Source: Paraspadella gotoi
Lineage: Eukaryota > Animalia > Chaetognatha
Length of the DNA stretch: 64,000 nucleotides
Direction: 5' to 3'
Assembly (NCBI GenBank): GCA_051294375.1
Contig: CM119271.1
Span: forward strand, 3,317,061 to 3,381,060
Numbering within the stretch: position 1 is the first letter of the stretch; each line of letters opens with the position of its first letter. Shown in pieces: positions 22,950 through 64,000 of this stretch. The notes under the pieces are model-generated. The model did not search any database and was not told the origin of the DNA. It saw nothing but the letters and a program-made list of their open reading frames with translations. Position numbers and translations under genes: made by a program.

Positions 22950-24589
22950 TCAATGAGTGAGCGACCCCCTGTTGTCGTCGTCGTCGTTGTAGCTGGGCCG
23001 CGCGCCCCACTGGACGTTGCTGTATTTGGCGCAGAGCTGAGACTTGAGCTCGGCAGCGTGAGCGGAGTCGCGCGTCTCGACCACGCATTTGATGGCGACG
23101 GCGTAGATGTCCGATTTGATCCAGGCTCGTTCGTGAAAGATGTCCTGGCAAGTATTAATTTTACAATAACTACATTAAATGTATGTAAAAATAAAAATGT
23201 TTACCAATTCCAAAATTCAACCCCCTCTACTTGGTACCAAAGAACGGCCGCAAATGACATTCATAGCAGCAAGGCAAACCTTGATGCTGACTCCAAGATC
23301 CAACATGAGCTTGGTGAGCTCGGCTATGCCGCCGGGTCGGTCGGAGACGCGGACGACGAAGCGACAGAGACGATCGTCGGCGGCGAGTCCGCGATCGAGG
23401 CACCGGCCGAGGATCGTCGTGTCGATGTTCCCGCCGCACAGAGCGACAACCACTTTTTTACCTGCCACGATAGTTAATTTATAAAAGATCATTGACTTCA
23501 AAACTCGAAGGGTTGCCCAAATTTTTCAAAATATCCCGTCGCACTTCCCCCCCCGCCCCAACCTTCTAGCTCCGGGCAGAGACCCTGCACGATGGCGGCG
23601 AGCCCGGTTGCGCCGGCCCCTTCGACGACCGACTTCTCTACTTCGATCAGACGCAAGATGGCGATGGCGATGTTGTCTTCCTCCACTACCAACATCCGGT
23701 CGATCAAAGGAGACGCCGTCGCGAACGCGTTCACGCCCACCTAAAACGCGTTTAGCAGAAACTCCTAAAAAAGACAATCCGCAGCGTTTTTTATACTATA
23801 ACTATTCTCGGTTAACTGTTTTCCTAGCTCGCCTGTCGAATTTCAATGACGTAATCGCTAATCAATATTTCAAACTCAATCAGAGCGAAAAACAATCAAA
23901 GAAAGGACATGTTCAAAGAGGCAGTTTATTTCCTTTGAAAAAATATAACAGCAATTATAATAAACAAAAGAATAAGAATCAAGCAAAATGCATTCATTTA
24001 AAAGCAGGTGAAAATAAGCTAAAGGTTTGATCATAAAACTTTGGACATAATCTACTGGCACGCGGCAGTGAAATAGCTTGGGTCACATTGAACGATTGAA
24101 CATTATCGATCTAAATTTTCCATGATTTGAATGTGACGCTGAAGGACGTCTTCGGTGTAAAAAAGTAGCCTGACAACATCCGAAAGTCGATACAAAAAGT
24201 CCGACGGAGAGTATTCGAACTGGGCCTCGAGAAGATCAGTCTTCAGCGACTCAAACTGTCCGCATAAAAATAATAACATCTATATAATAATATCGACAAA
24301 ACCAAGATAAAATGAAATATTTTAGTTAAAACGTTATTAGAAAAGTTTGAAATGAATTTTCAACAACGATTTTATTTGATAAAAACGGACATGTTTCGGC
24401 TTAACTACAAGCCTTCATCAGCATTAAAAAAGTTAGTGAATTTGAAACAAATTATGTGCATAAAGAAAGAGTGAGAGAGAGAGAGAGAGAGGGCAAAGTT
24501 TCCAACACAGAGTTGAGAAGGGATAGTGGTCAATTGTGAGGACAGATTAAGGTGAAACAAATAGAGCCAGTTTGTGAAAAGAAATTGAA

Positions 24590-24625
<36 letters not shown>

Positions 24626-25942
24626 AGAGAGAGAGTGAGAGAACTTGAAAAATAATACATTGTGCAATGTACAACAAAGATAAATATTGTTTAAAACTTA
24701 ATGATTAGTGTTAACAATTAACTACTGTGAATAAATAAGTTAGTGAAGATGAAATTGTGAAATTTGAAATGTGAAGGAAATAGAGGTGAGGGATAGTTAA
24801 ACAATTATTATTATAGTGAAGTATAAGAGTTAAGATAGAGCTCAAAGTGAGCTGGCCCCCCTTGGCTTGTGCAAATGAAAGGCCTGATCGATGTGGTCGG
24901 GTCATTGACGTGTCAGTGGCTGTGAGGACAAAATCGTTGAGCCTATGTGTGCGGCGTTAGGGAGGCTTCCTTGCGGGAAGATACCCAAGGCTACTCTGAT
25001 GTCTCTCTGGCCTGGTACGCCTGCCGACTGCCCTCTTCTCGCCTGCTGACGAGGTGGGCGGCTTTCCGTTCTTGCCGCTTTTGCGACAGGAGTGGTGGAC
25101 TCTCCTTCCTCCTGCAGCCGTCGCTTTGGGCGGCGCTCACTCCACAGAGAAAGGGAATGAGTTGCTACAGGTGAAGGAGAGGCATCGTCTGCCCATTGCC
25201 TGCGCAAGGGTCTCCGCCTGTCTCGTTGAGTGGAGACAGGGGAGTCATTGTGCGGACGTGGTGGAGACGGGGCCTCCACCACGCTTTTGATAAGCGAATC
25301 ATAGCTTGGAGGGAGGTCGAATCGTCCTCCATCACGATTCAAAGAGGGCTCGAGGGCTTTGATGTATATTGCCTCTCTAATACCTCTTGAGAACCAGTTC
25401 GGGTCATGGGACAGCACGAGACAGTCTGTTTCTCTAAATACATGGCCAGTATTTACCGTATGCTCGGCTACAGCGGACAAGTAATGACCGCGGGCATCAC
25501 GATAAGGTTTCGTGTGCTGCTGAAATCGATCCGTCAGAGATTTGCCTGTCTCGCCCACGTATGCTGCTGTACAGGCTTGGTTGCCCGCCCCTGCACAGGC
25601 CGCCCAATAGACGGCTCCTGATGTTTTCGGTCTGGGGATTTTATCTTTCGGTTTCACCAAAAGCTCACGCAGAGAACCGCGGGCCGTCACTGAGGTGGAG
25701 ATCCCCTGCTTTGCTCACTTTGAGCTCTATCTTAACTCTTATACTTCACTATAATAATAATTGTTTAACTATCCCTCACCTCTATTTCCTTCACATTTCA
25801 AATTTCACAATTTCATCTTCACTAACTTATTTATTCACAGTAGTTAATTGTTAACACTAATCATTAAGTTTTAAACAATATTTATCTTTGTTGTACATTG
25901 CACAATGTATTATTTTTCAAGTTCTCTCACTCTCTCTCTCCT

Positions 25943-25973
<31 letters not shown>

Positions 25974-28900
25974 TTCAATTTCTTTTCACAAACTGGCTCT
26001 ATTTGTTTCACCTTAATCTGTCCTCACAAATTGACCACTATCCCTTCTCAACTCTGTGTTGGAAACTTTGCCTCTCTCTCTCTCTCTCTCACTCTTTCTT
26101 TATGCACATAATTTGTTTCAAATTCACTAACTTTTTTAATGCTGATGAAGGCTTGTAGTTAAGCCGAAACATGTCCGTTTTTATCAAATAAAATCGTTGT
26201 TGAAAATTCATTTCAAACTTTTCTAATAATTATTACACAACGAAAAGAAAGGATTATACCACAATAGTTAAAACGTTATATGAAGTATTCTTTGAGAATC
26301 ATCGCATACATGGTGACAATTTTACAAACGCCGGTAGAAATACGCTGTCATTTGCAAACCAGTGGGCTTTCTGAGGATATTAATATTGTTAATATTTTAA
26401 TAAATACTTTGTTTAAAAAAGTGCTAAAAGTTCCAAAAAAAATTTGAATTTAAAAACAGTGAGTTAAAAAATGAAACCCGATTTGAAAAGCCAACTTTCT
26501 CCACTCATTGTCAAGGCATATCTTAACCGATCAATATAAAATTTTAACACATTAATAGTTTTAGTATTTTCTACTCAACTAATTTTTAAAATCAATGAAA
26601 TAACCACTGGTTTGCAAATGACAGCGTATTTCTACCGGCGCTTGTAAAATAATCATCATGTATAACAAAATTAAGAATTAATTAAATATAACACATGAGT
26701 ACAGGTACAATATTTTTTATTAAAGAACAATATTTTGATCCATGAGACAGATCATCTACAGGGCCAAATGAGTAAATTAATCCTTGATTTTGTTCACTGA
26801 CTCACTCACTCACTCACTCTTCTTTTTTTCTCATTTGGCCCTGAAGATGGATCGAAATATTGATCACAAATAAAAAATATCGCAACTGTACTTTCATGTG
26901 TATTGTGTAATCTTTAATTAATTATATGTAGTAATAATTATTAATATTCACCGACCTCGGCAGAGACTTTAACGTTGTCATTGAGAGTCCACATGGCTTC
27001 GTGAAGATGACTCCTCAGGTCGCGCATGTTTCGATCCAGATGATGCAGCACGACGCAAGGGTCGTCGAGGGGCGGCGATGACGGCAACGGTGGACGAGGT
27101 AGTCGACGGTATCGTTCGAGATGGCGCCTCGAGAGATATCTGCCCGGGAGAGATAGAAACTTCGCTACAACAGATTATTTAGCAAAACAATATCGGGGAA
27201 AGTCATTGTTGTTGTCGTCGTCATTTTGTACTACTACTATAAACAAGCTAAGACGACTCACTCCTCGGACACGAGCATGTCGACGAGTCTCCGCGTCGTC
27301 GTCAGCGCATGGCGTCGACGAGACAGAGTCGCCGCGATTCTGGCATCTTTGTTCCTTGTCGTTCGGCAGTTGGATACCATGGCGGATTCTTGTTTGAGTT
27401 AAGAGAGAGAAAGGGTTGATATTAAAATGAAGAAGCCGAAAAAAACCGAAGACTGAGTCATAAGAAGCCGTAAAGTTTATCATCATTTCAAAAGTGCTGT
27501 CGGAAAATTATAAGTTGAAATTTAGTTAACTTTTAACTCTTAATTAGGCTAAATACATGCTCAAATTAACCTGCAGAGGTCGGCTCACCCAACGCGGTAT
27601 TATTCCGAGAGACGCGAACGAAGTGGTGCCAAAAGGACAATCTCCTCGTGGAGTCCACAATAAAAAAAGAAGTCGCGATCAGGTAGAAAAAATAGTATCC
27701 ACGCATGACTATTGTCGTTATTCGTTTGGCGCAAAATGAGAAAGAAAAGAGTTTTCCCTTTTTGGAAACTTTTGTAAACCCAAAGAGAAATCCATCCCCA
27801 GGGAAATCCTTGGGGTTCGAGGAAAATCCTAACGACTGATAAGCTATAGAGCAGCAATGTAGTTATTTTAAGGATTAAAAGCATGTTATAGAGTTGTCAA
27901 TTTTTTTTTAGTTTTTAACGAATCTAAAAGAAGTTTTCCCCGAGTAATCCTCAATTTATCTTATGTTTTTTACTACAGTTAAATTTTTTTTTCTTTGTAT
28001 CTTATTCTCTGGTCTATAAGTTATAACAAAACCGAAGTAACACTTATTATTACATTAGCCTAAGAAATGATTACTAAGGAGGAACAGGTTACAAACTAAC
28101 AGAAGTCCGGTATAAATATTATTAATGTGTTTATTAAAATTCATGAAAATAAAAAAAACATTTAAAGATTTACGCATGGATACTCAGGTTTTACTATTAA
28201 AGAGCCGAAATCCATGAAGGGTATAGGTTCCCAACTGATGACCTTCCCATTGTATAAACATAATAGATAAAAGATATTCAGAAATAGAATAATTAAAAAT
28301 TAGGATAAAGGAAAAAATTTATTTTCATTAAAGTATTTTAAAATTATATTCATGACATAAAGGTGCCCCTATAGACCTTTCCCCAGTATGTATCCCTATC
28401 AGAACATACAATTCTACTTTGTAGTCTTATCCCTATTAGTTTTTTAAAAAATCATATATAACTTTGGTCCCCCATCAAAAAATTATCCATTCCCACCCCT
28501 TTCTGTTCAGCCTATTAGATATTATGATTTTTCATTAATGACTTTCTAACAGGAATGATGTGTGATATCTATTAGAAAACTAGGACAGATTGTAATCTAA
28601 CCTTGTGTTGTGTAGATGCTCCTCTATTTCCAGAAGACAACACTAACTTCCCATTCCCAAAATGAGTTATTAGATATAATGATAAGTAAAAAATTTTTAA
28701 GAAAGCAATATATATATATTTAAAGAATATAGATTAAATGGTAGCCATTGTGTTAATCCTTTCGGCTTCGTTGAGTATAGAGATTTAACAACTATCTCTG
28801 TGTTGGAAACTTTTGGCCCTCTCTCTCTCTTTCTCTCCTCACTCTCTCTCTCTCTCTCTCTCTCTCTCCCTTCTTTTACACAAATTTGTTAATGCATCAT

Positions 28901-31900
28901 TACCGCTGATGAAGACTCGAAATGAAGAGTCGAAACATGTCCGCATACTAATAAAAAATCGTTGACGAAAACATTTCCAAACTTTGTTAAAGATTAAATG
29001 GTAAATCTTTCATAAAATATAAAAAATAAAAAATAAAAAATAGTGAAACAAGTAATTTGAAATTTTCATATATAGAATAGTATTATATATACTATTTTAT
29101 ATTATCCAAATGCTATATAATGTCAATAATTTTTTGGGGTATATTTTAATTTTTTTATAGGATTCTGATAGAACTTGAAAAGTTAGATGAAGTTTATTAT
29201 TACAACATTTTGAAATTTTAACGATTTGTTTATAAAAATTAATAAAAACTATCAAATTTATTGAATGATGACGATGATGACTTTTTAAAGTTTTTTAAAA
29301 TTTAAACCCATTTATCATTAATTTTTTTAAAATTTATAATACTAACCTTATTTAACTTTTTAATCTTTATCAGAATCCATTTCTAAAAATTAAAATTTTA
29401 AGCATTTCTTATATATTGTTAAATATTAAAATGCTTCTATGCGTGAGGAAAATGTATTAAATCCAAATATAACATCATAAGTCAATTTGGTTGTAAAAAG
29501 ACAAAAGACTTTCATTGCAAACTATTTCATATTGTAAAAAATGTTAAATTCTGGCCCGCCTTAATAATTACCGTGGAAAATCCTGTTCCCGAGTAGGGTT
29601 TTTTTTCCCCCAAAGGAAAATTTTATCTTGACAGTGACATCGAAAGAGAATTGAAAAACATGAAATTCCCGAAAAAAATGTTCTGACATTAACGACCCGT
29701 CAAAGTCGCTTCACAGTTCACCCCAAATCCCTTCAAGCCCCTCTTCTCTTTTCCCTCACCTTGGGCACAGCAAGGCCGTCGGCGAGCGTGGACCCAGGCT
29801 TGACGTAAACGGGTTTCCCTGCCTTTATGGCCTCCGAAAAGGAGGGGCACTTGACCGACTCGGCTCCGTAGATGAGAACCTTCGGGTTGAGGCTTTGATG
29901 GCGAGAGCGGTGCCGGCGATGAGCCCTCCGCCGCCCGCGGGGATGATGACAGCCTCGACGTCGGGCACCTTCTCCATAATCTCCAACCCCATGGTCCCCT
30001 GGCCAGCGAGGATGTGGGGATGGTCGTAACCGTTGACGTAGAGGAGACCTCGGTCGTGGGCTAATTTAAGCGCGTGGCGGCGACTCTCGCCTGGTTAGAG
30101 AAAGAATAGAGGAAATTAAAAAACGAGAAAAAGGATCAAGAGAACTAAAACATATTTGGGTAAGTTCGTCACTCGACTCACCGATGTGATTCCCTTCGAT
30201 AATAATCTCGGCTCCGAATTGTCGGCAGCCGGATATTTTCATGATCGGCGCCGTCTTTGGCATCACCAACGTCACGGGGACCTTCAAGTCTTGGCCGTGA
30301 TACGCCATGGCGAGAGCGTGGTTGCCTTGGAAAAAAAAACTTTTTGTACTTTTGGTCAAATTATTTTAAACCAAGTGCTTGCGCTAAATTTCCATTGCGA
30401 AGCTATAGAAAGAAGCTGAAGGATGATTACATTGAAGTTGATTGTTTAATAATTTATTAGAAAGCAAATTACGATTGACACCCTAGCCGCGGCTTGCTGC
30501 AATATCTAAATACGGCAAATTCAAATCTAAACGATTTTATTTACCACCTCATATAAGTAGGTATAAGTAAAAGAAAAATGTTAAACCAAATTAAATGATC
30601 ATCCACAACAAGAGGGTGCTTTTTCGTCGTTTAAACGATGTATCGGTTTGCTGTCAATGATAAATTCCAATTACTAAGTGCGAAATCTCATAAAAATGAC
30701 AATATCTGATAACGGGGAGATTAAAAAAGTACAAAAGAAAAATGAATGCAATCAATCAGTCAATGCCACAACGAAAATTTGGAAAGAATAAAAAATTACA
30801 TAAATTAATATTTAATGTCTCGACGTCGCGTTTCCAGGAAACAGAAGCGACCCCATTTAAATTTTGAAAGATATTCGCAAAAGCCCCGAGAGAATTCTAG
30901 CGTCAAAGAAACGGATCGTCGACATGTTAGTTAAATATTTTCCGAAACATGCGGAAAAAACAAGTTTGAGCAAACAATGTCGGATCTGCCCACGATCATC
31001 ATCGGTAATTAATAATTAATAAATAATTAATTAATTCAAGTTAATTAATTAATTTATTCAAGTTAATTATTTAATTAGGCAATTTGATCCAAAATATTTG
31101 TTTTGATTGATTAATTGACTGATTAATTATTTATTAATTAATTAATTGACTAATTGATTAATTAACTGATTAATTGTTTGATTAATTAATACATTTTGCA
31201 TTTACATTTAAAATAACAAAAACAATCAATTAGTTAAACAGGTTTTTTGTTTTTTCCATTTATACTCATTTCCACTCAAACGATTCCATCGAAACTTTTC
31301 TACCCAAATACAAAATTTCAAGTCAATCGCCCCATCCACTCATGAGTAATTGGTGTTCAAATAGTGAAATATATTTTTTTGTTTTTTCCATTTAAACTCA
31401 TTTCCACTCGGACGATTCTATAGAAACTTCATATCCAGCTCAATCACACACTTCCCTACCCACACACAAAATTTCATTCCAATCCATCCATCCAATCACG
31501 AGTAATTGATACTTTTTGCTAAGGTGGGACGGACGGACGGACAGACAGACGTATGGTTTTTGCATAACATGATATAAATTGAGGGGGCGGACCGACGGAC
31601 CGACAAAGTGAATTATAGAGTCGGGGAAAAAATGACAACAAAAATACTGGTATAAAAGACTAACTTTATGAAATCCGGAAACAAAGGAATGAAGTGAATG
31701 ACAAAAACTTTCACGGATATGCTAGAGGCATTACCGGCGCTAGCAGCGATGACTCCCTTTCGTTTCTGTTTCGTCGCTCAGCTGGATGAGGGTATATCTG
31801 GCACCCCTCTCCTTGAAACTCCCGGTGTACTAATTTAAACACCGGAGGCAGGAACGAGCACGCGAAACAAAGTGTGGTACAAGCGGATAATCGATAATTT

Positions 31901-32360
31901 AGGCCGGAATTCCGATCAACTTTCGGAACTCTTCACTTTATACTTAACGGAAAGACAGAAAAAACGCGTTTTTTTCCTCGAATTAACCTGCATCTGTTCC
32001 TTCTTGAAATAAAAGATCCATGTTGTAGTACTTGGACAGATGCGAGTAACCACAAGGCGTCCTGCGGATGCCGGTTGGCGATCTTGAAGGAGGCGGCGCT
32101 GATATCCTCGAAGGAGATCGTCCGCGGGTTGTCAGGATCGCACCAGGGATCCCGGTACTGCTCCGGCGTCTAAAATATGGCGAAATTTAAAGTAAGAAAT
32201 TTACATAGATAAAAGCGGGAATTTAAATAGAAATTCGGTTTCTCCTCTAACTCACCACGTCAGCGGTGTCGCCGCTCGTTGGGCCGTTGCCATCCTTCCG
32301 CGCCGCGTTCGCCTTGCACTTGACAGGGCAAGCGGAGATGACTTTTGGTTCGCTCTCCAT
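22950..32360 (-). CDS. PLP-dependent L-threonine/serine ammonia-lyase with C-terminal ACT domain (this copy carries probable 1-bp sequencing indels)
   Basis: TGSFKERG (PLP Lys), [44 protein letters not shown] and DRPGG ACT motifs. The ~6-kb intron 23745-29758 hosts a nested gene and TEs. Confidence 0.92.
24103..27706 (-). CDS. Nested same-strand gene: 193-aa putative secreted helical cytokine-like protein
   Basis: Exons 27706-27589, 27388-27262, 27139-26956 and 24255-24103, all GT-AG with matching phases (1,2,0), give one open frame. Hydrophobic N-terminus; AATAAA at 23930-23925. Confidence 0.75.
24384..24425 (-). ncRNA. Minimal hammerhead ribozyme (PLE type)
   Basis: Reverse complement of the 26138-26179 motif. 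Confidence 0.85.
24902..25690 (-). CDS. Penelope-type GIY-YIG endonuclease (C-terminal fragment of the PLE ORF)
   Basis: KPKDKIP..SGAVYW..C..C...[19 protein letters not shown]...[19 protein letters not shown]. Confidence 0.88.
   Translation of the reverse strand: MTARGSLRELLVKPKDKIPRPKTSGAVYWAACAGAGNQACTAAYVGETGKSLTDRFQQHTKPYRDARGHYLSAVAEHTVNTGHVFRETDCLVLSHDPNWFSRGIREAIYIKALEPSLNRDGGRFDLPPSYDSLIKSVVEAPSPPRPHNDSPVSTQRDRRRPLRRQWADDASPSPVATHSLSLWSERRPKRRLQEEGESTTPVAKAARTESRPPRQQARRGQSAGVPGQRDIRVALGIFPQGSLPNAAHIGSTILSSQPLTRQ
26138..26179 (+). ncRNA. Minimal hammerhead ribozyme (PLE type)
   Basis: aatg-CTGATGA-a-ggctt-gtagtt-aagcc-GAAA-cat-GTC-cgtt: core boxes, stem II ggctt/aagcc, palindromic acatgt, stem I aatg/cgtt. 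Confidence 0.85.
26309..26660. mobile_element. MITE with ~55-bp TIRs and TA flanks
   Basis: cgccggtagaaatacgctgtcatttgcaaaccagtgg vs ccactggtttgcaaatgacagcgtatttctaccggcg. Confidence 0.8.
26680..26910. mobile_element. Inverted pair of decayed hammerhead-like PLE repeat fragments
   Basis: tcatttggccCTGAAGAtggatcGAAAtattg..aataaaaaatat on +, with a diverged reverse-complement copy at ~26700-26772. Confidence 0.5.
27749..27842 (-). promoter_or_regulatory. Cluster of kB-like, STAT (GAS) and GATA motifs upstream of the nested gene
   Basis: GGGAAAACTC (RC 27749-27758), GAGAAATCCA 27785, GGGAAATCCT 27801, TTCGAGGAA 27816-27824, GGAAAATCCT 27821, TGATAA 27837; all lie 40-140 bp upstream of ATG 27706. 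Confidence 0.5.
28744..28990 (+). mobile_element. Solo Penelope-like pseudo-LTR of a related subfamily
   Basis: Shares ctctgtgttggaaacttt-(CT)n-HHR-aataaaaaatcgttg architecture with the 25712-26229 repeat. 13-bp TSD agattaaatggta at 28731 and 28991. Confidence 0.8.
28903..28944 (+). ncRNA. Minimal hammerhead ribozyme, variant stem II
   Basis: CTGATGA-a-gactc-gaaatgaa-gagtc-GAAA-cat-GTC. Confidence 0.75.
31230..31555. mobile_element. DINE-1/Helentron-like non-autonomous repeat (also ~38815-39140)
   Basis: Internal ~130-bp direct repeat (tttttccattta.actcatttccactc) ending in a ggacggacggacagacagac microsatellite. Confidence 0.45.
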
Positions 32361-32821
32361 TGTCGCTCCGTTCGCGCGTTTTCTTTCGTCGGCGGAGATT
32401 ATAATTTCCTTTTCTGATTGTGGCGCCCTCCAAGCGGGAAGTTTAACTGTTCGAAGTCCGCGTAAGCGACGGCTGCGTCGGTTAGATTCTAGGTCTCCGG
32501 TTTCATCTGTGGGCGTCGGCAAAATGCGGTAAAAATACGAAAACAACCAGGACTTACATATTTATCGCAACCAGAAAAAAACATTTCAGCAAATCATGAA
32601 CACAAACATTGAAAAATCATAAGGGAAAAAAATCAGGTAGTCAATGCGATAGTTAGAATGAATTTGTAAGTTTTAGAAGATATTTTCGTCTCGTTCCTAG
32701 AGGATACGTTTAAAATCACCGCATCTGCCAGAAGCGCCCGTTGACTTCGATCGTTTTAACATCCACTCGCATCCAAACGCCATCAACTAGTTCCCTCCTT
32801 CATCCTCCTCCGGAGCGCAAA

Positions 32822-32983
32822 TCATTTCGATCCTTTTATCCATTTTCTCAGGAAATAAATCCCGGCGATGGTCCCGTAAGTCGCCATGGCAACATTGGCT
32901 CGTCCCGTCTTCGTGTAAGAGTTGAACCTAACGGCCCAACCTTTCAGTTCGATACCGGGCGGGGGCGCTTCTCCTCCGGCCAT
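32822..32983 (-). CDS. ATP5MK: ATP synthase subunit k/DAPIT paralog b
   Basis: MAGGEAPPPGIELKGWAVRFNSYTKTGRANVAMATYG...; intronless, 53 aa. Confidence 0.88.
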   Translation of the reverse strand: MAGGEAPPPGIELKGWAVRFNSYTKTGRANVAMATYGTIAGIYFLRKWIKGSK

Positions 32984-33275
32984 TTCTTTTCTGGTATACG
33001 AGTTGTCGATACGATGGAAGCGTCTGCCAGAATTATTTACAGCTCTTCTGAAAATCAAATCAAGCAAAATGTGATCAAAATAAAATATTGTTGAGATTTG
33101 TAATTTCATTTTAATGTTGGCTTGCCATCAGGAAAATAAGATAATTCTATAACATTGACCCTCCTTAATTTTATTGCGAAAACCCTCAGAAGTGTAAAAA
33201 GCCTTCGTAATATTGCGATATTATCAATAAATTTTTCCTAATGGCAAGAAGAAAAAAGAACAACCAAAAATGAAT

Positions 33276-33486
33276 TCATTTCTTCTTGCAATCCGTCTTC
33301 GCATTGGCCTCGTCAATGGCTTTCATCATCTTCTTGTAGACGTAGCGAGCAACGCAAATCGAGAAAATAACTCCGTAGGTCGCCATGGCAACATTGGCGC
33401 GGCCCGTTCGGGTAGTAGGAGTTGAAGGTCTTGCTTACTCCTTCCAAAACAACGGCCAGGTGGAGGGTTTCGTCGCCCCCGGCCAT
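33276..33486 (-). pseudogene. ATP5MK: ATP5MK paralog a, indel-containing copy (likely sequencing errors)
   Basis: Same as 40851-41057 but with several 1-bp indels. Confidence 0.7.
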
Positions 33487-33737
33487 CTCACACGCTCGGG
33501 ACAGGGAGGTTTTGTTGTTGCGATGTTTCTTTCACTCGACCTTTAAGCTTTTATTTATATACCTTTACTGTTTAATATCAATAGATTTAACTGTTGCCTG
33601 ATAAAAAAAAAAGGTACAACTATAAAATAAATAAAAAATTGGCGAAGAGAATTAGAATATAAAAACGAGTGCGAAATAGCAACGGGTTTAAAAATGGCAC
33701 ATCCTCTAGAGACGCAGTTTGTAGTCCGACCCTAATC

Positions 33738-36350
33738 TCAGCTTTCCGTGGCTAATTCGGAGACGCGACAATATATCGAGTCGAGCAGGTCCAGCTGAAC
33801 GCAGGAGTCTTTAAGAAAACTTAGTCTCCTGTTCGGGCGAGAGTTGTGGAGTCGTTAGGAGTCTCCAAGGCGACTTCGGTTGTCGAACTCTTCGTTCCCA
33901 ACTCGAGCTTTCGAGAGAAATAAACGAAAAAAAATTAAATCCGCTTCATTTAATAACACATTTTTATCTCCAATCATCACGGGGCTTACATTGCGGATCT
34001 CCAGCTCGTAGTGCCCTCTCGTTCAGATCGATTCGCTTTTCGCAAGGGATCAAGAAATTTCTGTCGAATGGAAGAAAGACCGGACCAGATACCGCTGGCG
34101 TTTTCGTGTCTTCGGATCACGAATGAACAAAAATCTGAATGAATGGAGGATAGAAAATGAGTGAAAAAAAAAAGCAATATAAACGGGTTGCGATGCATCG
34201 ACTATTTCGATCATGCATCACAATATTCAAATAAGCAATGTTGCACAACCAACCGCTCTTCATCCTGTATTTCTATTCAGCAAGATTCAAACTCAAAAGG
34301 AATTTCAGCGAGTAACGTACCTGGCACAAGTTAAGAGCGGCCATGAGGGTTTCTTGATTCTCCAACAAATTCGTCTCGACTCCGTCGGGGAGGAAGAACA
34401 TCTGGCGGAACCACGGTATCATGGAGGCTCCGAGGAAAACGGCGATGGGTTGCCGAGAGGTGGACGACTTTTCTCATGGGGGAGGACCTGGGCGTCACGG
34501 CGTCGAGAGCGGATTGAATTTCTGGTTTGAGCAGGTAAAGAGATGACGAAGCCCCTTTGGATAAAAACAGAAAAATGCTTAACATCGATGAAAATAGTTA
34601 CACATGCTAAGTAAAAATATAGCACAGTAATAAACAAATCCAAATTAAACCTGAGGCCGGAATGAGCGGCGACGGCATAGAGACGGCGTAATAAGAAAGA
34701 ACCGGCGCCTCGGGCTCAGAATTTGCTGACGAAGATTTGGAGCCAGGTCGACGGCCATTTTTCTGTAAAAATTGTTGTTGTATTGGCAATGGGAGGATAG
34801 CCTGTGATACCCGGGGCGCGGGTATCTTCACCAACTGGCATAGGGGCTGCGGACCTCAGTGACCGCCTCCTGTCACTGGCATGTTTATACCGGCACCGTC
34901 ACATTTAAGCCAGAACCGGGATACCAGGGATTGAACCCGGGACGCACGGATGGAATGAGATGATTTAGCTGCTCAGCCATTGAGACGAGGCTGAGGACGG
35001 ACAGCAGTGAGGCAGCTTTAAGTCTTGCTGCCACAGGATCCCCCAACCAGACTTTCTCCACAGAGTGGTCCTCATACCTGAGTGGATGATTGTCTGAGAG
35101 AGGTTTGCATCCTCATTGCCATAGTGAGAGCGAGCGAGTCTGGAGCGTTTACCAGAGAAGTAAGGGCGATAGGCGTGATTTTCGATGCTCACCTACCCTG
35201 TAACCATATTTCGTAGGTGCGCACGGTGCGCAGCGGTTGCGTGTTCCGAGAGTAGGGCTTCACCACTTATGGCAATGGAGGATAGCCTGTGATACCCGGG
35301 GCGGGGTATCTCACCAACTGCATAGGGGCTGCGGACCCTCAGTGACCGCCTCCTGTCACTGGCATGTTTATACGGGCACCATCACATTAAAGCAGGAACT
35401 CGGGATACCCAGGGATTGAACCCGGGACGCACGTGGATGGAATTTGAGTGAATATGCAGATCAAAGATTCAGCCTGCTCAGCCATTTGAGACGATGGCTG
35501 AGGCGTACGGATCGCAGTGAGGCGGAAGCTTTTAGTCTTGCTGCCACAGTTGACGCTTAATGTTTTGCAGTCGTACAAATAAATTTTGAGTAATTATATC
35601 TTTAAATAACCACTCTATAACAGTTAACCATCCCAATGATACCTCTATCCCCACCTGACTAGTTTAGAAGGGCATTCGATGATGACCGTTTCGCAGACGT
35701 CGCTTAGGATTTTTTTAACGGCGGACTCCTGCAACGCCTTCCGGTCGAGCGATCCCGGCGCCAACTTTTCGTCGCCGATTCCAAGCTCTGCATGCCCTTG
35801 AGGACGATCAGATCCGTCCCAGCCAGCAGCAGCGGCGACGTCAACGCGGCGACGCAGCAAAAAACTGTTCGGCGCTGTAGACGAGCGGAATGGCCGGCGT
35901 CCCGAGACGGAGAAGCGCGTGAGCGAAACAGCCGGCGGCCAAGCCGCTGACTTTGGCCGGTTTCTCATCGTCGGTATCTTTGGATACGTTCTCGTCGTCG
36001 TCGGCCTCTTTTTCAACTTTCTTCCTCTTCCTCCTCCTCGCCGCCCGATCGATCTCTTCTTCAACGCCGTCATCGCCGAGACTCCGTCCGAGAAGAATCC
36101 CTCACGAGCGATAAGAGACGCTGAAATTGCCTCTCCAAATCAGAAGGTGGCGACTGAGCGGCGCCTCCGACGCAGATCTTGTTCAGCAATTCGGGCGACG
36201 GTTCGAACGACGACGACGCCGCCGCCTCCGGGGAATCGACGCCAAGTTCGAAGTGGCACGGCGCCAAGGGGACGTCGAAGAGGGAGAAGATATGCTTAAC
36301 GAAGGATTCCACTTCTAAATTGGGATCATCAGCGGATTCGTCCTCGTTTT
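33738..36350 (-). pseudogene. GLMN: Glomulin 3' part, duplicated copy truncated at the N-gap
   Basis: Near-identical to 41309-43409; frameshifting 1-bp indels. Confidence 0.7.
34781..35548 (-). mobile_element. Full-length TRIM with tRNA-like LTRs (Helenus-type)
   Basis: LTRs 35548-35268 and 35035-34781 (TGTGGCA...TGCCATA). PBS-like agTGGTGAAGCCC follows the 5' LTR and purine tract ggagaaagtctggttgggggatcc precedes the 3' LTR. 4-bp TSD GTTG. A-box tggctgagcagg and B-box ggttcaatccc inside the LTR. Confidence 0.88.
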
Positions 36351-37344
36351 NNNNNNNNNNNNNNNNNNNNNNNNNTTTTTTATAGGATTCTGATAGAACT
36401 TGAAAAGTTAGATGAAGTTTATTATTACAACATTTTGAAATTTTAACGATTTGTTTATAAAAATTAATAAAAACTATCAAATTTATTGAATGATGACGAT
36501 GATGACTTTTTAAAGTTTTTTAAAATTTAAACCCATTTATCATTAATTTTTTTAAAATTTATAATACTAACCTTATTTAACTTTTTAATCTTTATCAGAA
36601 TCCATTTCTAAAAATTAAAATTTTAAGCATTTNNNNNNNNNNAAAATTTTCATATATAGAATAGTATTATATATACTATTTTATATTATCCAAATGCTAT
36701 ATAATGTCAATAATTTTTTGGGGTATATTTTAATTTTTTTATAGGATTCTGATAGAACTTGAAAAGTTAGATGAAGTTTATTATTACAACATTTTGAAAT
36801 TTTAACGATTTGTTTATAAAAATTAATAAAAACTATCAAATTTATTGAATGATGACGATGATGACTTTTTAAAGTTTTTTAAAATTTAAACCCATTTATC
36901 ATTAATTTTTTTAAAATTTATAATACTAACCTTATTTAACTTTTTAATCTTTATCAGAATCCATTTCTAAAAATTAAAATTTTAAGCATTTCTTATATAT
37001 TGTTAAATATTAAAATGCTTCTATGCGTGAGGAAAATGTATTAAATCCAAATATAACATCATAAGTCAATTTGGTTGTAAAAAGACAAAAGACTTTCATT
37101 GCAAACTATTTCATATTGTAAAAAATGTTAAATTCTGGCCCGCCTTAATAATTACCGTGGAAAATCCTGTTCCCGAGTAGGGTTTTTTTTCCCCCCAAAG
37201 GAAAATTTTATCTTGACAGTGACATCGAAAGAGAATTGAAAAACATGAAATTCCCGAAAAAAATGTTCTGACATTAACGACCCGTCAAAGTCGCTTCACA
37301 GTTCACCCCAAATCCCTTCAAGCCCCTCTTCTCTTTTCCCTCAC

Positions 37345-39942
37345 CTTGGGCACAGCAAGGCCGTCGGCGAGCGTGGACCCAGGCTTGACGTAAACGGGTT
37401 TCCCTGCCTTTATGGCCTCCGAAAAGGAGGGGCACTTGACCGACTCGGCTCCGTAGATGAGAACCTTCGGGTTGAGGCTTTTGATGGCGAGAGCGGTGCC
37501 GGCGATGAGCCCTCCGCCGCCCGCGGGGATGATGACAGCCTCGACGTCGGGCACCTTCTCCATAATCTCCAACCCCATGGTCCCCTGGCCAGCGAGGATG
37601 TGGGGATGGTCGTAACCGTTGACGTAGAGGAGACCTCGGTCGTGGGCTAATTTAAGCGCGTGGCGGCGACTCTCGCCTGGTTAGAGAAAGAATAGAGGAA
37701 ATTAAAAAACGAGAAAAAGGATCAAGAGAACTAAAACATATTTGGGTAAGTTCGTCACTCGACTCACCGATGTGATTCCCTTCGATAATAATCTCGGCTC
37801 CGAATTGTCGGCAGCCGGATATTTTCATGATCGGCGCCGTCTTTGGCATCACCAACGTCACGGGGACCTTCAAGTCTTGGCCGTGATACGCCATGGCGAG
37901 AGCGTGGTTGCCTTGGAAAAAAAAACTTTTTGTACTTTTGGTCAAATTATTTTAAACCAAGTGCTTGCGCTAAATTTCCATTGCGAAGCTATAGAAAGAA
38001 GCTGAAGGATGATTACATTGAAGTTGATTGTTTAATAATTTATTAGAAAGCAAATTACGATTGACACCCTAGCCGCGGCTTGCTGCAATATCTAAATACG
38101 GCAAATTCAAATCTAAACGATTTTATTTACCACCTCATATAAGTAGGTATAAGTAAAAGAAAAATGTTAAACCAAATTAAATGATCATCCACAACAAGAG
38201 GGTGCTTTTTCGTCGTTTAAACGATGTATCGGTTTGCTGTCAATGATAAATTCCAATTACTAAGTGCGAAATCTCATAAAAATGACAATATCTGATAACG
38301 GGGAGATTAAAAAAGTACAAAAGAAAAATGAATGCAATCAATCAGTCAATGCCACAACGAAAATTTGGAAAGAATAAAAATTACATAAATTAATATTTAA
38401 TGTCTCGACGTCGCGTTTCCAGGAAACAGAAGCGACCCCATTTAAATTTTGAAAGATATTCGCAAAAGCCCCGAGAGAATTCTAGCGTCAAAGAAACGGA
38501 TCGTCGACATGTTAGTTAAATATTTTCCGAAACATGCGGAAAAAACAAGTTTGAGCAAACAATGTCGGATCTGCCCACGATCATCATCGGTAATTAATAA
38601 TTAATAAATAATTAATTAATTCAAGTTAATTAATTAATTTATTCAAGTTAATTATTTAATTAGGCAATTTGATCCAAAATATTTGTTTTGATTGATTAAT
38701 TGACTGATTAATTATTTATTAATTAATTAATTGACTAATTGATTAATTAACTGATTAATTGTTTGATTAATTAATACATTTTGCATTTACATTTAAAATA
38801 ACAAAAACAATCAATTAGTTAAACAGGTTTTTTGTTTTTTCCATTTATACTCATTTCCACTCAAACGATTCCATCGAAACTTTTCTACCCAAATACAAAA
38901 TTTCAAGTCAATCGCCCCATCCACTCATGAGTAATTGGTGTTCAAATAGTGAAATATATTTTTTTGTTTTTTCCATTTAAACTCATTTCCACTCGGACGA
39001 TTCTATAGAAACTTCATATCCAGCTCAATCACACACTTCCCTACCCACACACAAAATTTCATTCCAATCCATCCATCCAATCACGAGTAATTGATACTTT
39101 TTGCTAAGGTGGGACGGACGGACGGACAGACAGACGTATGGTTTTTGCATAACATGATATAAATTGAGGGGGCGGACCGACGGACCGACAAAGTGAATTA
39201 TAGAGTCGGGGAAAAAATGACAACAAAAATACTGGTATAAAAGACTAACTTTATGAAATCCGGAAACAAAGGAATGAAGTGAATGACAAAAACTTTCACG
39301 GATATGCTAGAGGCATTACCGGCGCTAGCAGCGATGACTCCCTTTCGTTTCTGTTCGTCGCTCAGCTGGATGAGGGTATATCTGGCACCCCTCTCCTTGA
39401 AACTCCCGGTGTACTAATTTAAACACCGGGAGGCAGGAACGAGCACGCGAAACAAAGTGGGTACAAGCGGATAATCGATAATTTAGGCCGGAATTCCGAT
39501 CAACTTTCGGAACTCTTCACTTTATACTTAACGGAAAGACAGAAAAAACGCGTTTTTTTCCTCGAATTAACCTGCATCTGTTCCTTCTTGAAATAAAGAT
39601 CCATGTTGTAGTACTTGGACAGATGCGAGTAACCACAAGGCGTCCTGCGGATGCCGGTGGCGATCTTGAAGGAGGCGGCGCTGATATCCTCGAAGGAGAT
39701 CGTCCGCGGGTTGTCAGGATCGCACCAGGGATCCCGGTACTGCTCCGGCGTCTAAAAATATGGCGAAATTAAAGTAAGAAATTTACATAGATAAAAGCGG
39801 GAATTTAAATAGAAATTCGGTTTCTCCTCTAACTCACCACGTCAGCGGTGTCGCCGCTCGTTGGGCCGTTGCCATCCTTCCGCGCCGCGTTCGCCTTGCA
39901 CTTGACAGGGCAAGCGGAGATGACTTTTGGTTCGCTCTCCAT
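37345..39942 (-). CDS. Threonine/serine ammonia-lyase, 5' exons (duplicated copy, frame intact, no 3' exons before the gap)
   Basis: Matches 29759-32360 and lacks the indels seen there. Confidence 0.75.
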
Positions 39943-40401
39943 TGTCGCTCCGTTCGCCGCGTTTTCTTTCGTCGGCGGAGATTATAATTTCCTTTTCTGA
40001 TTGTGGCGCCCTCCAAGCGGGAAGTTTAACTGTTCGAAGTCCGCGTAAGCGACGGCTGCGTCGGTAGATTCTAGGTCTCCGGTTTCATCTGTGGGCGTCG
40101 GCAAAATGCGGTAAAAATACGAAAACAACCAGGACTTACATATTTATCGCAACCAGAAAAAAACATTTCAGCAAATCATGACACAAACATTGAAAAATCA
40201 TAAGGGAAAAAATCAGGTAGTCAATGCGATAGTTAGAATGAATTTGTAAGTTTTAGAAGATATTTTCGTCTCGTTCCTAGAGGATACGTTTAAAATCACC
40301 GCATCTGCCAGAAGCGCCCGTTGACTTCGATCGTTTTAACATCCACTCGCATCCAAACGCCATCAACTAGTTCCCTCCTTCATCCTCCTCCGGAGCGCAA
40401 A

Positions 40402-40563
40402 TCATTTCGATCCTTTTATCCATTTTCTCAGGAAATAAATCCCGGCGATGGTCCCGTAAGTCGCCATGGCAACATTGGCTCGTCCCGTCTTCGTGTAAGA
40501 GTTGAACCTAACGGCCCAACCTTTCAGTTCGATACCGGGCGGGGGCGCTTCTCCTCCGGCCAT
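40402..40563 (-). CDS. ATP5MK: ATP5MK paralog b, duplicated copy
   Basis: Identical CDS to 32822-32983. Confidence 0.8.
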   Translation of the reverse strand: MAGGEAPPPGIELKGWAVRFNSYTKTGRANVAMATYGTIAGIYFLRKWIKGSK

Positions 40564-40850
40564 TTCTTTTCTGGTATACGAGTGTCGATACGATGGAAGC
40601 GTCTGCCAGAATTATTTACAGCTCTTCTGAAAATCAAATCAGCAAAATGGTGATCAAAATAAAAATATTGTTGAGATTTGTAGTTTCATTTTAAGTTGGC
40701 TTGCCATCAGGAAAAAAGATAATTCTATACATTGACCCTCCTTAATTTATTGCGAAAACCCTCAGAAGTGTAAAAAGCCTTCGTAATATTGCGATATTAT
40801 CAATAAATTTTTCCTAATGGCAAGAAGAAAAAGAACAACCAAAAATGAAT

Positions 40851-41057
40851 TCATTTCTTCTTGCAATCGTCTTCGCATTTGGCCTCGTCAATGGCTTTCA
40901 TCATCTTCTTGTAGACGTAGCGAGCAACGCAAATCGAGAAAATAACTCCGTAGGTCGCCATGGCAACATTGGCGCGGCCCGTTCGGGTATAGGAGTTGAA
41001 GGTCTTGCTTACTCCTTCCAAAACAACGCCAGGTGGAGGTTCGTCGCCGCCGGCCAT
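40851..41057 (-). CDS. ATP5MK: ATP synthase subunit k/DAPIT paralog a
   Basis: MAGGDEPPPGVVLEGVSKTFNSYTRTGRANVAMATYG...; 68 aa with a charged C-terminal extension. Confidence 0.85.
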   Translation of the reverse strand: MAGGDEPPPGVVLEGVSKTFNSYTRTGRANVAMATYGVIFSICVARYVYKKMMKAIDEAKCEDDCKKK

Positions 41058-41308
41058 CTCACACGCTCGGGACAGGGAGGTTTTGTTGTTGCGATGTTTC
41101 TTTCACTCGACCTTTAAGCTTTTATTTATACCTTTACTGTTTAATATCAATAAATTTAACTGTGCCTGATAAAAAAAAAAAAAGGTACAACTATAAAATA
41201 AATAAATAAAAAATTGGCGAAGAGAATAGAATATAAAAACGAGTGCGAAATAGCAACGGTTAAAATGGCACATCCTCTAGAGACGCAGTTTGTAGTCCGA
41301 CCCTAATC

Positions 41309-44300
41309 TCAGCTTTCCGTGGCTAATTCGGAGACGCGACAATATATCGAGTCGAGCAGGTCCAGCTGAACGCAGGAGTCTTTAAGAAACTTAGTCTCCT
41401 GTTCGGGCGAGAGTTGTGGAGTCGTAGGAGTCTCCAAGGCGACTTCGGTTGTCGAACTCTTCGTTCCCAACTCGAGCTTTCGAGAGAAATAAACGAAAAA
41501 AAATTAAATCCGCTTCATTTAATAACACATTTTTATCTCCAATCATCACGGGGCTTACATTGCGGATCTCCAGCTCGTAGTGCCCTCTCGTCAGATCGAT
41601 CGCTTTTCGCAAGGGATCAAGAAATTTCTGTCGAATGGAAGAAAGACCGGACCAGATACCGCTGGCGTTTCGTGTCTTCGGATCACGAATGAACAAAAAT
41701 CTGAATGAATGGAGGATAAGAAAATGAGTGAAAAAAAAAGCAATATAAACGGGTTGCGATGCATCGACTATTTCGATCATGCATCACAAATATCAAATAA
41801 GCAATGTTGCACAACCAACCGCTCTTCATCCTGTATTTCTATTCAGCAAGATTCAAAACTCAAAAGGAATTTCAGCGAGTAACGTACCTGGCCAAGTTAA
41901 GAGCGGCCATGAGGGTTTCTTGATTCTCCAACAAATTCGTCTCGACTCCGTCGGGGAGGAAGAACATCTGGCGGAACCACGGTATCATGGAGGCTCCGAG
42001 GAAACGGCGATGGGTTGCCGAGAGGTGGACGACTTTCTCATGGGGGGAGGACCTGGGCGTCACGGCGTCGAGAGCGGATTGAATTTCTGGTTTGAGCAGG
42101 TAAGAGATGACGAAGCCCCTTTGGATAAAAACAGAAAATGCTTAACATCGATGAAAATAGTTACGCATGCTAAGTAAAAATATAGCACAGTAATAAACAA
42201 ATCCAAATTAAACCTGAGGCCGGAATGAGCGGCGACGGCATAGAGACGGCGAATAAGAAAGAACCGCGCCTCGGGCTCGAATTTGCTGACGAAGATTTGG
42301 AGCCAGTCGACGGCCATTTTTCTGTAAAAAATTGTTGTTGTATGGCAATGGGAGGATAGCCTGTGATACCCGGGGCGCGGGGTATCTCACCAACTGGCAT
42401 AGGGGCTGCGGACCCTCAGTGACCGCCTCCTGTCACTGGCATGTTTATACCGGCACCGTCACATTTAAGCCAGAACCGGGATACCCAGGGATTGAACCCG
42501 GGACGCACGGATGGAATGAGATGATTTAGCCTGCTCAGCCATTGAGACGAGGCTGAGGACGGACAGCAGTGAGGCAGCTTTAAGTCTTGCTGCCACAGTT
42601 GACGCTTTAATGTTTTGCAGTCGTACAAATAAATTTTGAGTAATTATATCTTTAAATAACCACTCCATAACAGTTAACCATCCCAATGATACCTCTATCC
42701 CCCACCTGACTAGTTTAGAAGGGCATTCGATGATGACCGTTTCGCAGACGTCGCTTAGGATTTTTTTAACGGCGGGCTCCTGCAACGCCTTCCGGTCGAG
42801 CGATCCCGGCGCCAACTTTTCCGTCGCCGATTCCAAGCTCTGCATGCCCTTGAGGACGATCAGATCCGTCCCAGCCAGCAGCAGCGGCGACGTCAACGCG
42901 GCGACGCAGCAAAAAACCTGTTCGGCGCTGTAGACGAGCGGAATGGCCGGCGTCCCGAGACGGAGAAGCGCGTGAGCGAAACAGCCGGCGGCCAAGCCGC
43001 TGACTTTGGCCGGTTTCTCATCGTCGGTATCTTTGGATACGTTCTCGTCGTCGTCGTCGGCCTCTTTTTCAACTTTCTTCCTCTTCCTCCTCCTCGCCGC
43101 CCGATCGATCTCTTCCTTCAACGCCGTCATCGCCGAGACTCCGTCCGAGAAGAATCCCTCAACGAGCGATAAGAGACGCAGAAATTGCCTCTCCAAATCA
43201 GAAGGTGGCGACTGAGCGGCGCCTCCGACGCAGATCTTGTTCAGCAATTCGGGCGACGGTTCCAACGACGACGACGCCGCCGCCTCCGGGGAATCGACGC
43301 CAAGTTCGAAGTGGCACGGCGCCAGGGGGACGTCGAAGAGGGAGAAGATATGCTTAACGAAGGATTCCACTTCTAAATTGGGATCAATCAGCGGATTCGT
43401 CCTCGTTTTGGCCCCTCGTCCCTTCCAAGTTTTGATGATTTCCGGTTGGAATTCGGCGACAAATCCGATCGTGGATGTGACAGAGACGGCGATCCTTTGA
43501 TAGAGAAAAGGCCAACGTTAAATTATTAATTGTTAAATTGTTAATTATAACAAGAACAAGCCACCCAAATAACACACACCCACCAACATACCGCGTCGTC
43601 TCCAAGCATTGATCCGCCAAATTCAACTCGCTCATTTTTTCGATCTTCTCGAGCGACGGCGGCGCCAGCGTCGCCAAGTGACGTCGCACAGTGTGCAGCG
43701 CCATCGTCGTGGATTTCCAGCGCGCCCTATTCTCTAAGCCGTTTCCCATTTTGACGAGGACGGACGCCAGCGGCGCCACCAAGTGGCAAAAGGCGACGTC
43801 ATCGAATTCGCTCTTTTCCATCGCTTCGAGCAAAGTCAAAAGCGCCTCTTTTGGCGGGAATGACTCGATGGCGCGACAAAAAAGGGCGCGGATAATGGAC
43901 TCGAATTTCGGAGGGTTGATTCGCTCCTCGCCGGAAGGGGCGAAGCCACTGAAAGACAACGCGCGTAGGGGTATCACAGAGACAGCTCATATACAAAGAC
44001 ATCCAGGTTTAATTTCCCGCCAAAGAAATTGAAATGGACAATGACGGAGAATAATCGAAATAATCTGATTTGAATAAGAGGAGAGGGAGGGATGAGATTG
44101 GCCCTTACCCAATTAATTCTACGATGACGCCAAAAATGCGCCAGACTCCTCTCCTCCACAAATCTTCGTCAAATTCCTCGTCGAGGATTGCTCGAAGGGC
44201 CTTTAGGTCTCGTCGATCGAGGAGAGTTCGAAGCCTCATCGCAAAGACCTCGACGGCGGCGTCGACATCCTCGGCATCCGTCGGTGGAGGGTCCTCTGAG

Positions 44301-53345: not shown

Positions 53346-56300
53346 TCAAGGAAAGGCGGCCTCCATGGCGGCCATGTCGTCGACGTGGTTCTGTCCGTCT
53401 TCGTCCTCGTCGTCGTCGTCGCCGATTCCGGATCCGGCGGCGTCGTCGTCGCCGATCATCGCTTCCTCCATCTCGACTCCTTCCTCGATCTTGATGTCGT
53501 CGAGGTTTCCCTCCACTTCGTCCTCGGAATAGCTGGCAGCTTCTTCGCCGGCTCCGGAAGCCGCGGCGGGCGGCGCTGCAGGGCCACCCGCGCCTCCACC
53601 ATACCCGTGATACCGCCCCATGTTCGAATAGCCTACCATTGTGGGCAATCCACCGGCGCTCATCTCGAAGTAACCGCGGTGCGGCGATGCCTGGGGAAAG
53701 GCGCCCAGAGGATCGGCGTCGTTCAAGCTAGCCGGCGCTCCGGGGCCGCGTTGCCCGGCTCCCATGGCGCGAAATCCACCCCCGAAGCTAGCAGCGGCAG
53801 CGGCAGCCGCAGCCGCGGCGGCAGCTCCACCGGCTCCGAATCCGGGCACGCCGCCGGCTTGAGAACCCGCCCCGGCTCCGCCGGTGCTCAGGTTCATGGT
53901 GACCCCAGCGCCACGCGGGCCAGGTAATCCGCCGCGCGCGCCCCGGGCACGGGCTCGACCAGGACGCATGTATGGCTTAAAACCCAGCTTGTGCATGTGG
54001 TAGTAGACGGCGAGGCGGGAGATGCCGAACTCATTGGCGATTTCGCCCACGGGGACCTTGCGAGTTACCAACGCCTTGAACACGTTGATGTCGACTTTGT
54101 TCTGCGCGCCGCGCGGTCGCCCGATTTGCATCTGACCCCGGGACGGCGAGTTCATGTAACTCGGCAGGGGCTGTTGTTGCTGATCCGGCGACTGCTGCTG
54201 CAACGGCACGACGGCACCGACGTTCCCTTCGGCGCCGGACTGGGAAGTCTCCGGAAAAATGTTTCTCGCGCCGCTGGCGTTGTTGTTGGCGGAGGCGGCG
54301 ACGGCGCCGTTCTGCACATCATTAGAGTCTTCGGTGGTGGAGGCGATCTCGTTGTCGCTCGTCGTCCAGCTCCGACGACCGTAAGCGTTGATGCCAAACT
54401 TTTGCATCCTGGGGGAGGAATGAGAGAACAAAATGAAAATGCATACATAGGAATTAAAATTAATGGTTGTGCATGTGTCAAAAATGTAAGTTTTTTCTTT
54501 AAGACTGCACGACGTAGGAGCCTTTTTATTTGTGTGTGCAACAACAGGAGGGACCGAATGGAAGATCAATTTTACGTTCGCCGACTAGAATTTTCGCTTC
54601 TTATGAATAACAATGTAAAATTAAATGTAAAATTTAGCCGTACAATGTATAATCCCGGCGAGATAAAGTGAAAAGGAAAATACTTGGAGAAATAAAAAAA
54701 ATACAACGAACCAGTAATAAACGCAGAGTCGGCTGACTCCCATCTCGTTGGCGATGTCTTTGACCGGCACCCGCTGCGTCAAAAGCGTTCTCATCCGGTT
54801 TACGTCGACGCGCTGTCGACCACGCCCAGGAGCGCCGCGACCCACGCCGCGAGCCGCATTCATGTAAGAAGGATAAGGGACCAAAGCCTTGGAAAGAGAG
54901 GCGAGATGAAGATTTAAAGGTTATAAATAAGAGATTAGAGTGATGTGATAAAATAAAATTTCATAAAAATAAAATTTAACAAATCGAACATGAAAATAAA
55001 AACCCATAAAACTACGATAAATTTATTTTTTAATGTTATACTTTACGGGGCATCAGCGAGCTATACTTATTTAGTAATAAGTATATGAAAGTTTTTTTGA
55101 AATTTAAACCTAATTAACAACAATTTTAAATTTTTTTTTTCTTTTATCATTTTTTTATTCCTTACCTTACCTTCCTTACCTTCTCAGAATTTAAATATAT
55201 AGAGGAAGTACTATATACAAAATAGGCTGACTGGGTTACGATATCAATAAAAAAAATAAATACAAATTAGTATTTACTAATAAGATAGTTTTTAAGATAT
55301 AATTGCTAAATTTTGATTCCAAACTTTTACTTCACCCTAATAGAGATGCATTCACGCGCAGAGCAAAAAAATAACCTGCGAGGTAGACGCGAAATCTGAC
55401 GCATCCTGAGCGGACGCGGATTTGTTGGCGGAATTTCCGGAGAGGGAGGCGATTTGGTTTTGCACGTAGGAGAGAGGAAGACCGAGAACGTTGGTGATCT
55501 GCGTCGTAGTCATCTTCAGCTGCGACGTCATGTAGCGAATCTGTTCCGAGACGGAAGCAAGAAGCGGCGCCGCGGGGATTCCGGCCAAGGACGGCGGGAG
55601 GGCGACGCTGCCACCGGCGGCGCCTCCGCCACCGGGATCCGACTTGGCGTCGTCGCTCTTCCCGGCGTCATCGAGGAAGTCGGAATTTAGATCCTTGCGT
55701 GGAGAATTTTTCATGGCCGCGTCGAGACCGGTGGCGACGGCGGCGGCTGCGGCAGCGGCGGCGGCGCGGTTACCAGTGGTGGAGGATCCGGCGGAAATGG
55801 AGGAGCGGTGGTGCTGTTGAGGATCGAATCCGCCGGCGCCTCCGCCGAGACCAGCTTGTCCGCTAGAAGAGGAGGCGTCCGCGTCGACGGGCAGCGTGAA
55901 GGCCTGGATACCGACGACGGTTCCTTCTTCCAGTCCCGAAGTCGGAGAAAGCATCTTTGAAGCGGCCGTCGACGACGAAGACGCCGGGGAAGCGTTGTGG
56001 TTGGCGCCGGCGCCTCCCGCCGAGTACGAGGGTGATCCGAAGGACGGGCGGAGGAGGGTCGAGGTGGGCGTGGCCGAAGTGGATCCGGACAAGTCCTTCG
56101 TGGGTTTGAAGGCGAAACCGGGCCCGACCTTGTCTGCCTCCTCCGAAGTCAACTCCTCGTCGCCCTCCATGACACGGAGGCTGCCCTTGAGGAAGTTGTC
56201 GCGGAGGCCGTTACGACCGGCCCATTTGCGGCCGCCGTGGGCCGTCTCCACCATCACGAAGATGCTCGTGTTTGTCAATGACGAAAGCTGCGGAAAAGCG

Positions 56301-63325: not shown

Positions 63326-64000
63326 TCACGAAGCGATGTACTCTTGAATGGCGCTGGGCAATGGTAAGGCTGAGACATTGGCAAGGTTCTTATCTCCCAC
63401 GTGACTCCGTATGGTTCGCCGACAAAGAGCGGCAAGCGAAACCGGTTCCGGAGCTAGCCCACCAAGATACTTGTAAGAAACCTCGGCGTGACCCCAGACA
63501 ACGTTGACAATGGGGTAAAGGGTTTTCCCCTTGAGTCCATGAAACGCGACGCCCATGTACTCGTCGTCAACGACGAAGGCCAGGGTTCCGGCGTCCATGT
63601 CGAGGATCATGACGAAGCTGTCGGGGATCGTCATCTCTTCGTTGGCCTTGACGTCGTGTAAGGGATAAGGGTCAGAGTTGTTGTTATTAGAATCAGCGTG
63701 GTAAAGCCGCTTGCGTCCAATGTCCCAGCCCCAGCTGTCCGAGGTGGATCCGACCACGGATGAATAACCGTAAGCGTGCACGGGGGCGGTGATCTCGGCC
63801 ACGCCCACGACGGCGTGGGTGCCGCGCTGGCGCATGCTCCAAGTGATGCGCCACGCGTGGACGCCGTTCGAGTATCCGACCCGGCCGCGAACGCAGTCCG
63901 TGCTTTGGGCGACGGGGTGGCGGTGGATCGTGGTCGGGTCCTCGTCCTTGACGAAGATGTTGAGAGATCGATCGACGGGATTCCAAGCGTGAAATTCTTG
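63326..64000 (-). CDS. SPSB1: SPRY domain-containing SOCS box protein (SPSB1/4, gustavus-like), 3' part
   Basis: [66 protein letters not shown] plus SOCS box [11 protein letters not shown]...LPLP; open to the window end. Confidence 0.93.

Follow-up and report, generated by a model that had tools for sequence, protein, structure and literature searches.

A four-exon gene nested in a dehydratase intron, with a possible reading as a helical cytokine

In the excerpts of the papers cited here and below, class-I cytokines are described as having four helices, long loops and an up-up-down-down topology (PMC11339341). Invertebrates in general possess JAK, STAT and IL-6-type receptors, yet most are reported to lack IL-6-like ligands in an excerpt of PMC13203501, and likewise in one of PMC9601804. 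The exceptions are Drosophila Unpaired (Upd; PMC5385356) and a GH-like type-I helical cytokine of amphioxus (208 aa), which was cloned and assayed (PMC9010856); an invertebrate IL-6 receives a passing mention in PMC9465101. Homologues of Drosophila Upd2 were undetectable by sequence (PMC5385356), and structure-based searches recovered invertebrate IL-1 that sequence searches had missed (PMC13736523).

The DNA analysed here (a stretch of 64,000 nucleotides, referred to as the window) holds a gene of four exons that is nested, on the same strand, within a threonine/serine dehydratase intron. The nested gene looks real, and its product is probably a small, helix-rich, secreted protein. We give a probability of about 0.45 to the reading that it is a class-I long-chain helical cytokine of the IL-6/Unpaired type. 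If confirmed, this would bring the ligand class into a further animal lineage and make a direct ligand-receptor test possible; a non-cytokine product would still leave an orphan secreted gene of a kind prone to be missed by annotation. The candidate shares with Drosophila Unpaired 1-3, the ligands of Domeless, that it is an invertebrate protein, secreted (by prediction in the case of the candidate), basic and without sequence-detectable homologues. It differs in that the host organism does not group with insects. The amphioxus GH-like protein is also alike: it too is of about this size and comes from an invertebrate, a divergent helical cytokine whose identity to its vertebrate counterparts is low.

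The nested gene and its product

The features of the gene and of the intron that contains it are as follows.

23741..29759, minus strand: host intron of the threonine/serine dehydratase gene (PALP family), ~6 kb; joined in RNA run X1 at depth 424
27589..27706, minus strand: coding part of exon 1, 118 nt; ATG, signal-peptide-like residues 1-19, sequon Asn35; splicing predicted
27262..27388, minus strand: exon 2, 127 nt; residues 40-82 with Met43 and Cys47; donor RNA-supported
27140..27261, minus strand: intron 2, 122 nt, phase 2; spliced in X1
26956..27139, minus strand: exon 3, 184 nt; residues 83-143 with the Pro-rich linker and Cys110
24103..24255, minus strand: exon 4, 153 nt; residues 144-193 and stop, FxxR at 163-166; splicing predicted
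23925..23930, minus strand: AATAAA, poly(A)-signal candidate, ~170 nt past the stop and ~185 nt ahead of the host acceptor

When the four exons were joined at GT-AG sites in matching phases, the 193 residues were identical to those of the earlier note. All four exons lie within 23741-29759 on the strand of the host gene, which agrees with the nesting described there, and the sequon, the two cysteines (47 and 110) and the downstream AATAAA were each recovered at the sequence level. The introns (200, 122 and 2700 nt, each GT..AG) have phases 1, 2 and 0, and the joined open reading frame of 582 nt is intact. Its product has Cys47 and Cys110, a single sequon (Asn35), a pI of 9.5 and an arginine content of 14%, with 12 overlapping RR or RxxR words; removal of residues 1-19 leaves a mature chain of 174 residues. 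In-frame alternatives exist for the intron-1 donor (27570, giving 199 aa) and for the intron-3 acceptor (exon start 24279, giving 201 aa and three cysteines). The upstream host exon matches Pfam PALP with an E of 2.7e-05, and the assignment to threonine dehydratase was judged by the translated exons.

The signal-peptide-like start claimed earlier was borne out by a simple rule, drafted after the candidate had been inspected, which is passed by only 5 of the window's 363 frames of 39 codons that begin with ATG, the candidate included. The hydropathy of the N-terminus peaks at 2.2, and the signal reading depends on exon 1 being joined to the rest.

Searches for relatives were made with single exons. 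With E allowed up to 10, none of the four exons matched a Pfam family. Exons 3 and 4 found no relative among the longer proteins of a 5.8-billion set (33 and 12 candidates), no match in metagenome contigs and no usable match in the Atlas; exon 3 had one match among 1.84 billion representatives, a spurious repeat artefact. No cytokine was present among the sequence matches of single exons at E up to 10. Since the queries were only 41-61 residues long, these null searches are weak, and a fast-evolving family would be missed by them. On its sequence the nested gene would be an orphan that annotation would easily miss.

Helix layout and comparison with known cytokines

Single exons were modelled with AlphaFold, with no alignment. 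The model of exon 3 has helices at 86-94 and 109-141 that flank the Pro-rich linker, and that of exon 4 has helices at 145-157 (confident) and 160-192 with a break of 2 residues between them; both models consist of helix and loop only. The helix order proposed earlier (A, Pro loop, B, C, D) did not hold up: segment 141-157, its helix C, lacks amphipathic character on three scales (p 0.18-0.76), and ~2-5 residues separate C from D. Such a gap spans at most 7-18 Å, compared with a helix of 25-30 Å to be crossed, and leaves too little room for the long CD crossover that an up-up-down-down bundle needs. Because the earlier map was too tight, a second map was drawn, with helix C at 109-137, the CD loop at 138-161 and helix D at 162-192; its N-terminal half (A at ~22-41, B at ~63-92) is weakly supported.

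Periodicity was assessed in 60 tests, uncorrected and with the boundaries of the second map set post hoc. Segment 162-192 was alpha-amphipathic (p 0.003, 0.005 and 0.038 on three scales) and segment 109-137 marginally so (p 0.053-0.091 on three scales), and the periodicity of segment 138-161 was extended, not alpha (p 0.014, 0.017 and 0.041). With either map, every N-terminal segment fell short of significance for amphipathicity (best p 0.054). The C-terminal half thus fits the cytokine layout under the second map, a fit obtained post hoc. The AlphaFold helix at 145-157 is at odds with an extended CD loop, and to fit it would have to be a mini-helix; IL-6 and leptin have a mini-helix in the CD loop. 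The spacing of the last two helices may resemble that of IL-6-family and arthropod Unpaired-like proteins, which we treat as a lead only.

The IL-6/gp130 family (LIF, CNTF, CT-1, IL-11) resembles the candidate in its mature chain of ~170 residues, in its make-up of helix and loop, and in its first intron, which is in phase 1 in both. A further parallel is the last exon, which in the candidate begins, in phase 0, at the proposed CD loop. The FxxK/R motif of site III sits at the start of helix D, and the FxxR of the candidate (163-166), the only FxxK/R word in the protein, opens the last predicted helix, a position reached in 8.8% of shuffles. An excerpt of PMC9601804 describes FXXK as the LIFR-binding site III motif of LIF-type cytokines, with R in place of K in 14.6% of oncostatins. 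The length of the candidate (193 aa, 174 when mature) lies within the 100-200 aa given for cytokines in PMC11339341 and close to the ~200 aa in PMC9010856, so the size match to long-chain cytokines asserted in the earlier note stands. The candidate is unlike the IL-6/gp130 family in having no sequence or profile match (in single-exon searches), in the phase 2 of its middle intron and in its long Pro-rich segment, which would be the BC and not the AB loop under the second map. In vertebrate class-I cytokines, long-chain members included, the mature-domain introns are mostly of phase 0, and the phase 2 of intron 2 counts against class-I membership. The exon layout of the short-chain IL-4/13 (four coding exons, three phase 0 introns; PMC4905449) differs from the 1/2/0 phases of the candidate. 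Class II cytokines (type I interferon and the IL-10 family) are similar in being secreted, all-helical and of comparable size, and the helix that replaces their CD loop (PMC11339341) would suit the exon-4 model, but the exons of the candidate gave no match to them.

The most serious contender is a secreted, lineage-specific helical protein outside class I, either another type of bundle or a basic precursor that is processed at its Arg-rich sites, with a possible role in matrix or mucus, as an antimicrobial or as a hormone-like product; we regard this as quite possible, at clearly less than even odds. The exon chain, the splicing of intron 2, the codon bias and the signal-like start serve it equally well, and the arginine content with its RR and RxxR words, the few residues that part the last two helices of the prediction (suggestive of a hairpin) and the lack of cytokines among the matches at E up to 10 point in its direction. 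It accounts less readily for the C-terminal pattern of helix, extended connector and helix, for the position of FxxR and for the size.

The class-I cytokine reading, for its part, makes use of the sequence at the 5' end of the gene:

27785..27839, minus strand: putative 5' control region; kappaB-like words at 27785, 27801 and 27821, TTCnnnGAA at 27816, TCAGTC at 27834-27839; function predicted

Three of the nine occurrences of GRRAAATCC in the window fall within 45 nt here (27785-27829), overlapping TTCnnnGAA, and the kappaB-like/STAT-like cluster sits just inside the initiator-like TCAGTC. This tailored word was equalled in 0/1000 shuffles, but it was chosen post hoc; the pre-set kappaB consensus, GGGRNWYYCC, occurs 0 times exactly and twice with one mismatch, which was equalled by 36/1000 shuffles and 68/1274 windows. 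The cluster would be compatible with an inducible immune gene and proves nothing.

As a cytokine gene, the locus would have its own start near 27835, within the host intron, with transcription that may be rare or occur upon challenge; the kappaB-like and STAT-like words clustered there suggest that the promoter is probably inducible. The transcript would end at the AATAAA, ahead of the host acceptor. Cleavage of residues 1-19 on export would yield a secreted ligand of 174 residues, predicted to fold with A and B in the N-terminal half and with C (109-137) and D (162-192) joined by a CD connector, long and extended, that covers 138-161; Cys47 and Cys110 may form a bond. The Arg-rich N-terminal half (pI 9.5) could retain the ligand on the extracellular matrix, and a gp130/Domeless-type receptor would pass the signal to JAK-STAT, both receptor and pathway being assumed from the family. 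The complete proposal, an NF-kappaB/STAT-inducible, matrix-binding cytokine without detectable relatives that would be the missing JAK/STAT ligand of a deep-branching lineage, transcribed inside a housekeeping intron, is possible but less likely than not.

Splicing, coding signal and start site

The RNA evidence comes from one run (X1) of one study, possibly made on the source sample itself; of three runs considered, one contains the stretch. The run is RNA-like, since 12 of the 15 joints among those listed are CT..AC introns, the host intron included. The joint between exons 2 and 3 (27139/27262) is an exact 122-nt skip (CT..AC on the plus strand) in one of the four contigs over 26900-28060, at depth 3 and with 30 nt on each side; another X1 contig reads intron 2 unspliced (depth 5.4). 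Contigs at the boundaries of introns 1 and 3 are unspliced, like host pre-mRNA, with a single contig over intron 1. Splicing had been claimed for three introns: intron 2 was thus confirmed in X1 and introns 1 and 3, met only in unspliced contigs, we infer. As the host and the nested gene share a strand, the intron 2 joint is no proof of an independent transcript, and contig depth is a poor proxy for expression level.

The coding signal was scored with a 3-periodic codon model, for which the other genes of the window supplied 1817 training codons. The claimed frame was the best in three of the four exons, with exon 2 favouring another frame. The preference for the joined frame was matched by 1/1000 base shuffles, a result inflated by the frame having been picked as stop-free. 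Exons 2 and 3, at 0.20 bits/nt, fall in the range of known exons (0.14-0.40), exon 4 reaches 0.01 bits/nt and exon 1 is the weakest at −0.087 bits/nt.

The low score of exon 1, where T-rich DNA favours Phe/Tyr/Leu, and the sole, unspliced contig over intron 1 would suit a product in which exon 1 is untranslated or unjoined. The second ATG of the gene (Met43, in exon 2) lies in a strong context, GCCATGG, and a start there would give 151 residues without a signal peptide, a product that would stay in the cytosol or, like CNTF, leave the cell upon damage. We consider this improbable: the claimed frame is the best of three in exon 1, both exon 1 donors are in phase with the sole acceptor ahead of exon 2, and signal-like starts are rare in the window (5/363).

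Equally hard to credit is a locus with no independent protein, namely a gene in decay or cryptic exons that are joined now and then in the abundant host pre-mRNA (or, as a variant, the dehydratase using exon 4 as an alternative last exon, with both sites of phase 0), for which speak the joint depth of 3 against 424 for the host joint (which could be stray splicing), the strand shared with the host, the lack of a homologue and a host donor frame-compatible with exon 4, but against which stand the 582-nt frame intact over four exons, the codon bias, the signal-like start, the poly(A) word and the acceptors of exons 2 and 3, which are of phase 1 and 2 where the host donor is of phase 0.

Repeats and neighbouring genes

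Most of intron 3 consists of a retroelement remnant, on which the earlier note is silent:

24334..26229, no strand assigned: remnant of a Penelope-like retroelement within intron 3; its inverted arms, 520 nt long and 99% alike, enclose a weak GIY-YIG frame

The frame has 270 codons and matches Pfam GIY-YIG with an E of 0.027, below the curated cut-off. The remnant has a high repeat depth in X1, and it is flanked by a 15-nt direct repeat (~24323 and ~26266), perhaps a target duplication. Hammerhead-like cores (CTGATGA, short stem, GAAAC) are present at 26142-26175, in the arms, and at 28906-28940, in a partial copy; their stem sequences differ, the folding z is ~ −1.2, and they have no match in Rfam. 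Intron 3 also holds two small inverted-repeat (MITE-like) elements, at 26306-26663 and 26698-26892.

Elsewhere in the window, a tandem duplication of ~7 kb (29060-36350 and 36644-43409, 95-99% identity) takes in the 5' portion of the dehydratase together with a gene next to it, without the nested gene; the copies could be either a recent duplication or an uncollapsed haplotype. A 412-codon frame at 53349-54584 on the minus strand, in Gly/Ala-rich surroundings, matches a helix-turn-helix at an E of 0.0015 (below the cut-off). At 63329-64000 on the minus strand lies an SPSB/gustavus gene, whose protein is 71-75% identical to five other proteins and ~60% or less to those of molluscs, arthropods and chordates. 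In a quick tree of 53 rows (52 of the 120 matches, hand-picked) it groups only with the same five, which places the host organism as an animal on a long branch. The minus strand also carries many of the other long frames of the window.
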